Origin: Escherichia coli
GTDB taxonomy: Bacteria; Pseudomonadota; Gammaproteobacteria; Enterobacterales; Enterobacteriaceae
Assembly (NCBI RefSeq): GCF_050920415.1
Contig: NZ_CP169309.1
Length of the DNA stretch: 64,000 nucleotides
Strand: one strand, 5' to 3'
Below are positions 54,001 to 57,000 of this stretch, in pieces (the stretch's first letter is position 1; every line of letters starts with the position of its first letter). A program made the position numbers.

Positions 54001-57000
54001 TTATATTATAGCTTACACTTTTTTCTGGAAAGACATAAAAATCAGGAATAAGTTCTGCAAGTCTATCATCATCGACTTGATCCATGATCTCAAATTTATT
54101 AACTTTCTTTGATGTTAAATGGGCTGTGTCATAGTTTTCAATCCATGTGTATTCAATATTTCGCCGTATTGATTTACTTTCTCTGTTACCTTGTTGCCAG
54201 GTTCCGCTCAACGCAACAGTTCCTGTTTTATTTTTTTGGTTATACATAAAGTCGATGGTAAGATTTGCTCGCCCCTTGTCATTAAAAATTACCCAATTTG
54301 CAGTGCATGTTTCATTATATATCATTTTTTCTGCAGTATAAGAGTAAACAATGAAGAGAATAAACCCACTGATGAAAACTAAAATAAATAATAAGTTTTT
54401 TTTATAATCAATCACGATTAACCTCACGGTAAGACAGGGTTAAACAGCCTGCCACTTCATGTTGGTTATAGTTTTTATTGCATGCCATAACAATCATCCT
54501 TGGTGAGGATTTTGCAAGAGGGAAGTATAACCACGGATATTTTTTACAGTTAATCCCCGAATCCAGTATCCGTGTCTTATATTTATCGAACTCTTTCAAC
54601 CCATCAATTGTATCTTCTGTCACATTAAAATGGCAGCCATTAATTTCCGCAACAGTCTTGTAATCCTTGAAGAATGGCTTCGGTTGATTCTTATTCCATA
54701 GCCAATGTGCAGAATATACGCCTATAGCAAATATGCTCAACATAATTAGATAACTTTTTATATGTTTGAGGATTTTGTTATTGAAATTGTTTGCGCTACC
54801 AATGCTCTCTTTGTACTCCGCATTACCTTTTACCGCAGGTGGGGTATTGTGTGTATGTGCGTCTGTTGAAGAGTTTATTGCATGATTTTGTATGTTAATG
54901 TCATTATGAATCTTGAATCCTCTTCTCGGCACGGTTGCAATAAGCGAGTGGGTGGTATCACCAACAGCGCGAAATCCGCGTCTGATAATGGATATGTTCT
55001 GATATAACGTGTTAGTTGGCACACGCATACCTTCTTCTTCCCAGACTCTGGTGAAAAAATCTTGTTGTGCAACCACATCAGGAAAAGCTTCAAGTAGAAG
55101 TGATAAACAACGACTGGCTGGCGTTGTCAGAACGACGTTAAGATCGGCGTTATGTACCGATATTAATTTTCGGTGCTCAGGCCAGAACTCGATATTATCG
55201 TTAATAATCCAGTACATACGTCAATAGACACTAAATCAATCGAAATGGAAATCACATAGTTTGCTAAGTATATTGGTATTTACGGCATAAATATATATTA
55301 ATTTTATATTTATCATAATGATTGAAATGAGGCTTTAATGTCGCAACGTAAAACTTTACGTAAATTAACATGATTAACATTTACGCCACTATTGTTTGTA
55401 AATTCATATTTCGTAATGCTTCTGAATTTTTCGTGTGATGGTTTTAAATACCATGTTGTTTACTCTTGGGGTTACTGCTTATTTATAAAATACGGGCATT
55501 TCAATAGATGCCCGTATAAGCAGAGTATGATTCTGGCAGATTGTTGAGTATCAATGTTGGACCGAATGTGAACGAATAAATAACTCGTTTATTTTACCAC
55601 CCATTCTCTTTTCGATTCGTTGCTTGTACGCGTAGATGCTACGGATATCCATATCCAGAACTTCAGCAATCTGATATGGATTAAAACCAGAAACCATATA
55701 CCCCATTATGGTGAATTCCATCTGAGTTAATGTGTTCCCTCTGGTAAATGATAAATAACGACCAATAAATAGTTGTCTGATCTTTTCATTGGCAACATCA
55801 AGACCATCATCATTATATATGACAGCAGATATTGCAGAGTTGTGTTTTCGCCAGTAGTTAGCTAACGATTGCATATTGCGGTCGCTGACTAAAACAATCC
55901 CCATGTCAGTACTTGCAAGATAGTCAATCCAGTCTTTTTCAAGGAATAGACGTAAAAAACTTACTGAAAAATCGACAAAAATATATCCGCTTAATCTCGC
56001 ATTGTGGTTTTTTGTTAAGATACCTTCCACCACACCACGATTAAAATATGAACTTTCTTCGGGCCACATACAAAAACACGAGTTTGCGCAATACTGCAAA
56101 CGCGGTGACTCTTCTGGCATTATTTGGCAATGCATTGAGCAACTATTGCATGTAAGACTTTTATAACGACTACAAAGCCCCATGTTAAGAACCTCCCTAT
56201 CCGTATATAATTGCATAATTTCATTGGTTATTGATGATGTCAATACACCATGATTTTGTAATTTTGCTGGGAAAAATTGCGATTAATCTGTATTTGCTAT
56301 AATTCTGAGTAAGGCATTTAAAAATGCATTTCTCGTTATCAAATATGATTATGTTTCACTGATTTAATCTTGCATGGTTGAGAACGGTTCAGATAACTAT
56401 CTCATGGTATAAGAATATCTATATCGCAAATTGTTTTTGAATGACCAGAAGATATCTTGCGAATCTAAGTTATGCATCTTAAATAGTCTTATTTAAGATG
56501 TTCAGATCTCTTTGTGTGTTTAACTAACTGATAATACTAGGATTTGACGAGAGAAGTGATAGAGCGGAATAATAACAAATGAACATTATGAAAACTGGAA
56601 TGGTTCAAAATTGTAGCAATTTTGAACCATTCACAACGGATATTAGCTAAAGAACATTACCGATACGCACAGGATACCCACGATCAGCGTAATCAGATTT
56701 CCGATGGAACGCCAGGGTTTAAGCGCCGGGATGAGATATGTTGACAGCGTAGGCATGATGAAAAGTATCATGGCAATGAGCGGGCCGCTGATCGCGTAAA
56801 TCATCGAAATCGCGTTCGGGTTAATGCAACAAACAAAGAAGGTAATGAGCGATACCAACATAATTGATAGTGCGCGGTTAAATGCACGACTTTTCTTTAC
56901 ACCAACCTGCTGTAGTGTTGTTTTGACGACCTCCGTGGCACCTTCAATAACGCCAAAGTACGTACCCAGGAATGATTTCGACATCGCAACTACTGCGACA

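Follow-up and report, generated by a model that had tools for sequence, protein, structure and literature searches.

YqeH, a regulator encoded at the border of the ETT2 type III secretion island of Escherichia coli, carries an N-terminal cap in which four cysteines (C12, C15, C19 and C32) stand at a fixed spacing that recurs in many relatives. The cysteine region is confidently predicted to form a hairpin, ahead of a receiver-like domain and a LuxR/GerE-type helix-turn-helix (HTH). From the conservation and the predicted fold, we somewhat favour the reading that the cap is a Cys4 metal site, most likely for structural Zn(II), in a three-part regulator.

The cap looks like a previously unannotated variation within the known EcpR/MatA regulator family. 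None of the annotations describes the Cys4 motif, and in the literature on yqeH, EcpR, MatA and rmbA we found no description of it and no cysteine or structural work. The environmental input to enteric fimbrial and adhesin operons is poorly understood, and we know of no ligand for the EcpR/MatA family. A conserved cysteine module that can be lost as a unit and is carried by many adhesin regulators, including those of the Klebsiella ECP pilus, is a candidate input or stability domain, and YqeH, a little-studied regulator of the ETT2 border, gains a defined three-part architecture. In avian pathogenic E. coli, motility, biofilm formation, adhesion and virulence were all lower in a yqeH mutant, and YqeH was reported to affect flagellar genes, with no mention of cysteines or domains in that paper (PMC9014576). 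According to a review, espE3 is under positive YqeH control (PMC11068852).

The yqeH locus and its start codon

In the window (the whole 64,000-nucleotide stretch of E. coli DNA analysed here), the yqeH coding sequence occupies 55551..56183 on the minus strand (210 aa plus stop), as given by the open reading frame and its translation, and the RefSeq coordinates match. The identical 633-nt coding sequence is labelled by RefSeq in other E. coli genomes (97–99.9% DNA identity to the window) as WP_001305805.1, “helix-turn-helix transcriptional regulator”. It is placed at the AT-rich edge of the ETT2 island, with a G+C of 31–38% across the island versus about 50% in the flanking core genes. Its neighbours are yqeG (permease) on one side and the yqeI-yqeJ pair on the other, and of 5426 complete E. 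coli genomes, 4123 have DNA that matches the locus. The neighbourhood has no annotated histidine kinase, and no ecp genes or pilus operon adjoin yqeH, an orphan in E. coli with yqeI and yqeJ at its side. Among the E. coli alleles, some are frameshifted, with the N-terminus read in another frame, or truncated, and this fits the known attrition of ETT2.

A preliminary description of the locus had placed the start at the ATG at 56183 on the strength of a Shine-Dalgarno sequence, and this assignment holds. The AGGGAGG read in the sequence (56192..56198, minus strand) lies 8 nt before the ATG, and the arrangement of Shine-Dalgarno, spacer and ATG is conserved in all 10 species-level Escherichia and Citrobacter genomes. 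The Shine-Dalgarno itself is kept as TAGGGAGG in nine of them and reads TAGGGGGG in the tenth. In-frame stops are found just 5' of the ATG in three of the ten genomes, and likewise in C. koseri. The best-scoring site of a consensus scan, by pattern match only, is a promoter-like TTGACA-17 nt-(TG)AATTAT (56215..56243, minus strand) with 10 of 12 consensus matches and an extended -10 TG, and the upstream TTG “start” at 56243 is the first base of its -35 hexamer. Since the Shine-Dalgarno is conserved, in-frame stops lie upstream and the TTG falls inside the -35 hexamer, ATG 56183 is the real start of yqeH. The prospect raised in the preliminary description, that an upstream start might be the true one and the cysteine region unstructured, is therefore dropped, as the region is also folded by AF2 when a deeper alignment is given.

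At the other end of the gene, 28 nt past the stop codon, RNA folding gives a hairpin followed by UUUUAU (55475..55523, minus strand), with a free energy of -21.3 kcal/mol and z = -3.9 versus shuffles. It is not called by a simple terminator scan. This is a probable intrinsic terminator, with which yqeH would be monocistronic.

Several database entries that seem to be without the cysteine region owe this to starts called downstream of it. For example, the “195-aa” protein of C. koseri belongs in fact to a 233-aa ORF in which the motif is encoded and whose ATG is closely preceded by a stop; a Citrobacter cluster annotated at 182 aa has an ORF of 210 aa; and an E. coli entry at 172 aa also begins downstream of the motif. 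Such downstream start calls hide the motif in many database entries, which makes this a systematic annotation problem.

Conservation of the cysteines in YqeH and across the family

All seven cysteines of the 210-aa protein are at positions 4, 12, 15, 19, 32, 36 and 38, which confirms both the 40 residues quoted earlier and the count of seven among them, and places the cysteines within residues 4–38. Cysteine makes up 1.6% of the long ORFs in the window, and the probability of at least seven in 40 residues is 3e-6. None of the window's other ORFs with 150 aa or more has an equally dense cysteine stretch.

The core Cys4 module (residues 10–33; 56085..56156, minus strand) has the form C12-x2-C15-x3-C19-x12-C32, with its four cysteines invariant in the YqeH clade, and is a predicted beta-hairpin with a short helix before C32. 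It is followed by the clade-specific C36 and C38 (56070..56078, minus strand), placed in a predicted strand (37–40) that leads into the invariant W40-P41. These six cysteines are kept in 10 of 10 Escherichia and Citrobacter genomes and are invariant in homologues from 83% down to 59% identity, metagenomic ones included, while a homologue at 49% identity keeps five of the six. C36 and C38 are also found in P0060, P0042 has C38S, and the W-2 cysteine alone, without C36, is kept in a Klebsiella-EcpR-like clade. The seventh cysteine, C4 (codon TGT, 56172..56174, minus strand), is restricted to Escherichia, the position being Asp, Asn or Gly in Citrobacter and more distant homologues, and it is probably irrelevant to the cysteine module. 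A lipoprotein or signal-peptide reading of “MGLC” was rejected, as the N-terminus has no hydrophobic signal sequence and other genera do not keep C4.

Between E. coli and C. koseri, residues 9–40 have a pN of 0.08 and a pS of 0.77, like the core domain (pN 0.09, pS 0.87). Synonymous sites are near saturation across the Escherichia and Citrobacter yqeH genes, and the cysteine codons alternate between TGT and TGC from one taxon to another. The low pN versus the near-saturated pS, together with the switching of TGT and TGC, indicates purifying selection on the protein, not on DNA or RNA, at the yqeH N-terminus. The cluster is no compositional accident, and to this extent the interpretation first given is supported: six of the seven cysteines are conserved under purifying selection and four belong to a family motif of fixed spacing. 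With this conservation, this spacing and the predicted fold, the region looks as a metal-chelating module should.

For the wider family, 1.84 billion representative proteins were searched with a profile built from nine YqeH orthologues, which gave 175 matches, 101 of them at E <= 1e-10. C-x2-C-x3-C occurs near the N-terminus in 43 of the 144 representatives examined, and nearly all 43 carriers have a fourth cysteine at +13 and then [VI]WP seven residues on. Among the matches listed, the frequency of the motif is about 40% where the N-terminus is long enough to judge, and about half of the family members among these matches are without it. When cysteines were counted at the four core positions, each set by its distance from the Trp, 32 representatives had all four and 14 had none, with one, three and five representatives having three, two and one, respectively; in 29 others the annotated protein has under 28 residues ahead of the Trp. 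About half of the nine intermediates have a shorter loop between the third and fourth cysteines (8–11 residues), and the rest are partly or wholly decayed. By these counts the four core cysteines appear nearly all-or-none across the family, which is the pattern that co-operating ligands should show.

Alignment A4, made of 32 N-terminal segments, has no invariant columns other than those of the four cysteines and W-P; the invariance of the first three cysteines is partly due to selection of the segments, while that of the fourth cysteine and of the W-P register is not. The motif is conserved at 22–40% overall identity, and in many members a Pro stands four residues after the third cysteine. On this distribution, C12-C15-C19-C32 is the ancestral Cys4 unit, and the other cysteines are later additions: C38 arose in a sub-branch, C36 in the clade of YqeH (and in P0060), and C4 in Escherichia alone. 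P0084, a partial sequence, keeps the CxxC and, where YqeH has C36 and C38, carries Cys and His, a weak hint that these strand positions can supply ligands.

A genome scan with alignment A2 reached Escherichia and Citrobacter and nothing beyond, and when the N-terminal module was searched as a profile (A4) against 5.8 billion proteins, every match was a fragment from within the family. Six N-terminal segments had no Pfam match at E <= 10, whether to a zinc-finger, an Fe-S or any other family, and full YqeH had no relevant match among PDB sequences. Three matches were discarded: P0119 and P0199, very long proteins with repeated matches at profile positions 10–56 and almost no cysteine, are spurious, and a match to a CR1-like complement protein (E 0.25) reflects cysteine composition.

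Domain architecture and genomic context of the relatives

The cysteine module is followed by EcpR_N (PF27348; residues ~36–140; 55764..56078, minus strand), a predicted receiver-like alpha/beta fold with four strands, and by an HTH of the LuxR/GerE type (residues ~151–203; 55575..55733, minus strand). Precomputed annotations give PF27348 for the E. coli YqeH cluster and for all 58 homologues. PF00196 (LuxR/GerE HTH) reaches 23.4 bits on YqeH versus a gathering cut-off of 23.5 and is precomputed on several relatives, and the C-terminus is predicted to have the four-helix fold of the GerE type. The NCBIfam equivalog for EcpR, NF047921, aligns to residues 31–202 with 74.6 bits versus a cut-off of 300. 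With this score, and with no ecp genes adjoining the locus, YqeH is an EcpR paralogue and not EcpR itself.

The preliminary description held that the cysteine module is fused directly to the LuxR HTH and that no receiver domain is present. The direct fusion is not what we find, as the module caps the intervening receiver-like EcpR_N domain instead. The absence of a receiver stands at the level of sequence, with no Pfam match to Response_reg (PF00072) at E <= 1 and with an hhalign alignment of the family to NarL in the HTH alone, but not at the level of fold, since the predicted domain has a CheY-like alpha/beta arrangement. In this domain D71 and D101 are invariant and lie at strand ends. Regulators of the VpsT, CsgD and RcsB type share with YqeH a receiver-like domain followed by a LuxR HTH; they differ in that none has an N-terminal cysteine cap, and for YqeH four strands instead of five are predicted and Pfam gives no match to Response_reg.

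The confident AF2 fold depends on the alignment supplied. With nine close homologues, residues 1–60 had a pLDDT of about 30 and residues 1–63 were below 50. With an alignment of 35 diverse sequences chosen for bearing the motif, the mean pLDDT was 88 and the pTM 0.86, with residues 1–40 at 79–84. In this model, the predicted strands 10–12 and 20–22 are joined by a turn that holds the CxxC, a short helix (27–30) lies just ahead of C32, and the strand 37–40, which holds C36/C38, runs into W40-P41. An alternating beta/alpha domain and then four C-terminal helices follow.

Generally, regulators of this family sit at adhesin loci, namely the ECP pilus operon, autotransporter genes and fimbrial operons of the chaperone-usher type. 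A motif-bearing regulator, P0208, stands at the head of the ecp pilus operon of Klebsiella pneumoniae (MatB/EcpA, EcpB, usher, EcpD, EcpE), and a second one closes the operon on the opposite strand; the same layout is found on a metagenomic contig. P0208 has 33% identity to YqeH over 193 ungapped residues and shares C-x2-C-x3-C-x12-C and the W-2 cysteine. The Klebsiella ecp regulators differ from YqeH in having neither C36 nor C4 and in being encoded with the pilus operon that they presumably control. Our literature search found no experimental work on their cysteines. One member of a Klebsiella-regulator cluster is named “RmbA” by automated annotation, and KpfR of Klebsiella heads a similar fimbrial operon.

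Chaperone-usher operons headed by motif-bearing regulators were also seen in Enterobacter, in Pantoea and on one further contig, and in Citrobacter sedlakii two motif-bearing regulators stand beside an autotransporter gene. In all, named carriers of the motif belong to Escherichia, Citrobacter, Klebsiella, Enterobacter, Pluralibacter, Jejubacter, Dryocola and Pantoea, and all have generic annotations. In Pantoea, two genes like yqeJ and yqeI form a pair that is grouped with an autotransporter and with a short EcpR_N gene free of cysteines, and we take this cluster to resemble rmbA-misL-fidL-marT of Salmonella SPI-3. By analogy, this likeness suggests that yqeH-yqeI-yqeJ may be the remnant of an adhesin module of the rmbA-misL-fidL-marT kind.

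Readings of the cysteine cap

In the favoured reading of YqeH as a three-part regulator, C12, C15, C19 and C32 of the ~25-residue N-terminal cap would chelate one metal ion in a hairpin “knuckle”, and the strand that follows, through C36 and C38, may provide further ligands or make the cap sensitive to redox state. The degenerate receiver-like EcpR_N would serve presumably in dimerisation or partner binding, not phosphorylation, and the C-terminal LuxR/GerE HTH would bind DNA. By keeping the N-terminus of the receiver-like domain in shape, the cap would condition the stability or activity of the regulator. From the results of the analysis on architecture, conservation, selection and predicted fold, we infer metal binding, the identity of the metal and an effect on activity.

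Chelation is suggested by the four co-conserved thiols, their near all-or-none loss, the variable loop before the fourth ligand and the predicted hairpin. YqeH has the features of a Cys4 zinc module, with four co-conserved cysteines and a CxxC at the hairpin turn, and Zn(II) is preferred since structural Zn(II) usually occupies such sites in cytoplasmic DNA-binding proteins. The spacing CX2CX3CX12C differs from the canonical zinc ribbon with its two CxxC knuckles, and among Pfam families and PDB sequences the segment matched no described zinc-finger family.

E. coli MatA/EcpR bears on what the cap is needed for. It activates the ecp/mat pilus operon, represses flhDC and partners RcsB. It has EcpR_N and a LuxR HTH in common with YqeH (26% identity from YqeH residue 39 to the end), and its N-terminus is of similar length; however, it has no CxxCxxxC, only a single N-terminal cysteine nine residues before the Trp, and yqeH has no neighbouring pilus operon. 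As MatA/EcpR is reportedly functional without the motif, the cap is accessory, and DNA binding or activation in this family does not need the cysteines. A functional homologue without the cysteines had been named beforehand as evidence against the metal- or redox-sensing module, and MatA is in part such a case. It does nothing, however, to discount the strict conservation in the lineages that keep the cap. Both proteins are linked to the control of adhesion and motility, in the case of yqeH by the mutant described above (PMC9014576).

A less probable reading is that the cap binds an Fe-S cluster and that the motif-bearing regulators sense O2, NO, oxidants or iron and switch adhesin and motility genes. 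An N-terminal extension that is absent from MatA and holds four strictly conserved cysteines, with as many as two further ones in the clade of YqeH, would suit such a centre, as would the Pro four residues past the third cysteine in many members and the life of the hosts as facultative anaerobes of the gut; moreover, zinc and Fe-S sites are indistinguishable by AF2. However, CX2CX3CX12C is unlike the spacings of FNR (CX2CX5C plus a distal Cys), SoxR (CX2CXCX5C), WhiB (CXnCX2CX5C) and ferredoxin (CX2CX2CX3CP), and to our knowledge no Fe-S regulator motif has it. A tight predicted hairpin with the CxxC at the turn is more typical of zinc knuckles, the Pfam and PDB searches gave no match, and no Fe-S assembly or redox genes are linked to the loci viewed. 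FNR and CRP offer a functional analogy only, in which one branch has a Cys-rich N-terminal extension and a functional relative does not; FNR has an unrelated fold and another cysteine spacing, and cluster binding is proven for FNR and putative in YqeH.

The broader form of this idea, in which the Cys4 cap (with C36/C38) would be an Fe-S or redox-labile metal centre across the regulator branch, is likewise doubtful. If it were true, a branch of the Enterobacterales adhesin-locus regulators, comprising YqeH, the two Klebsiella ecp regulators and the heads of the chaperone-usher operons, would be direct one-component sensors of O2, NO, oxidants or iron by which the adhesion–motility switch is set, and E. 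coli MatA would be a derived, sensor-less form.

It is quite unlikely that the cap is metal-free and acts by reversible disulfides (e.g. C12-C15) as a thiol redox switch under oxidative stress. CxxC is a classic redox-active motif, and the odd surplus of cysteines in the YqeH clade (C36 and C38, and C4 in Escherichia) would be in keeping with this, but the cytoplasm is reducing, and four cysteines rather than two are co-conserved at fixed spacing and lost together, which fits a tetrahedral ligand set better. The thiol switch also overlaps with the zinc reading, since zinc-thiolate sites can serve as redox switches in their own right.

That the cysteine stretch is non-functional, either lying outside a protein started at M39 (or read from TTG 56243) or being a decaying, unstructured leader in an island under attrition, is highly improbable and we consider it already refuted: the short annotations of relatives (195, 182 and 172 aa), the frameshifted and truncated alleles and the low AF2 confidence with a shallow alignment speak for it, but the C. 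koseri ORF runs upstream through the motif to a stop just before its ATG, the Shine-Dalgarno and ATG are conserved in 10 genomes of which three have in-frame stops just upstream, the pN/pS of residues 9–40 equals that of the core domain, the motif persists at 22–40% overall identity, and the upstream TTG lies within the -35 hexamer of a likely promoter.

The YqeH of Bacillus subtilis, which dominates the literature under this name, shares with the E. coli protein the name only, plus an N-terminal zinc-binding motif of its own, and is an unrelated circularly permuted GTPase of ribosome assembly.

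Gene neighbourhoods of YqeH relatives

One locus among the relatives of yqeH comes from a Pantoea contig (L024, 150–12569), which contains genes for a YqeJ-like protein, a YqeI-like winged-HTH protein, a short EcpR_N protein devoid of cysteine and a 1005-aa autotransporter, followed by an EcpR_N gene with the four-cysteine core motif and a chaperone-usher operon. Salmonella SPI-3 contains rmbA-misL-fidL-marT, and the Pantoea layout is reminiscent of this arrangement. By analogy, yqeH-yqeI-yqeJ of E. coli would be an adhesin module whose adhesin was lost.

Other relatives are found in different surroundings. 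In the Enterobacter cloacae complex, two tandem EcpR_N genes with the cysteine motif (L023, 6001–7454) lie 5' of genes for an ABC transporter, a membrane-fusion protein and an OEP, a set resembling type I secretion, and no fimbrial genes adjoin them in this neighbourhood. One of the two is called "EcpR" by automated annotation. In Citrobacter koseri, yqeH is directly followed by genes for an RcnR-like metal repressor (Trns_repr_metal) and a NicO-family nickel/cobalt efflux protein (L007, 3658–4912), which deserve mention given the putative metal-binding regulator next door, and their position may be a coincidence.

Transcription units and the yqeH upstream region

Strong hairpins are located directly 3' of the stop codons of both yqeH (55475–55523, minus strand; dG -21.3 kcal/mol, z -3.9) and yqeG (56598–56632, minus strand; 16-bp stem), and these predicted structures point to separate transcription units for yqeG, yqeH and yqeI. 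With the mechanically listed GTG as its start, yqeJ shares 20 nt with the stop region of yqeI (54408–54427, minus strand); the RefSeq start of yqeJ is 12 nt further in, leaving an overlap of 8 nt. Such an overlap suggests translational coupling of this MarT-like and FidL-like pair.

The intergenic region between yqeG and yqeH carries the near-palindrome CGCAAGATATCTTCTG (56446–56461, minus strand), which PMC12844172 reports as the gSELEX binding site of HusR (YnfL) upstream of yqeH. It occurs only once in the 64-kb window.

Variation and annotation of the cysteine module

Aberrant E. coli yqeH alleles were noted (P0011, P0012, P0014, P0015, P0030 and P0034–P0038). In frameshifted alleles the N-terminus is in the +1 frame ("LNALPNNARRVTAFAV..."), and the HTH is missing from those with a C-terminal truncation. 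In another allele, P0003, deletion of residues 21–24 shortens the C19–C32 loop to 8 residues, a length also found among distant relatives. P0084, a 139-aa partial protein of metagenomic origin, retains the CxxC but not the rest of the core motif. Four and two residues before the invariant tryptophan (W-4 and W-2), at the positions of YqeH C36 and C38, it has Cys and His, respectively. Judging from these residues, the strand positions may provide alternative ligands.

Public annotations often place the starts of motif-bearing relatives 3' of the cysteine module, and the motif is therefore hidden in databases. For example, the C. koseri protein (L007, 2924–3625) is annotated with 195 aa instead of 233, the Citrobacter relative in the protein cluster of P0083/P0236 with 182 instead of 210, and the E. 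coli relative P0010 with 172 instead of 210.

ETT2 also encodes a second 210-aa LuxR-type regulator (48386–49018, plus strand; RefSeq "LuxR C-terminal-related transcriptional regulator"). Inspection of its sequence revealed no N-terminal cysteine cluster, and its N-terminus resembles a receiver domain.
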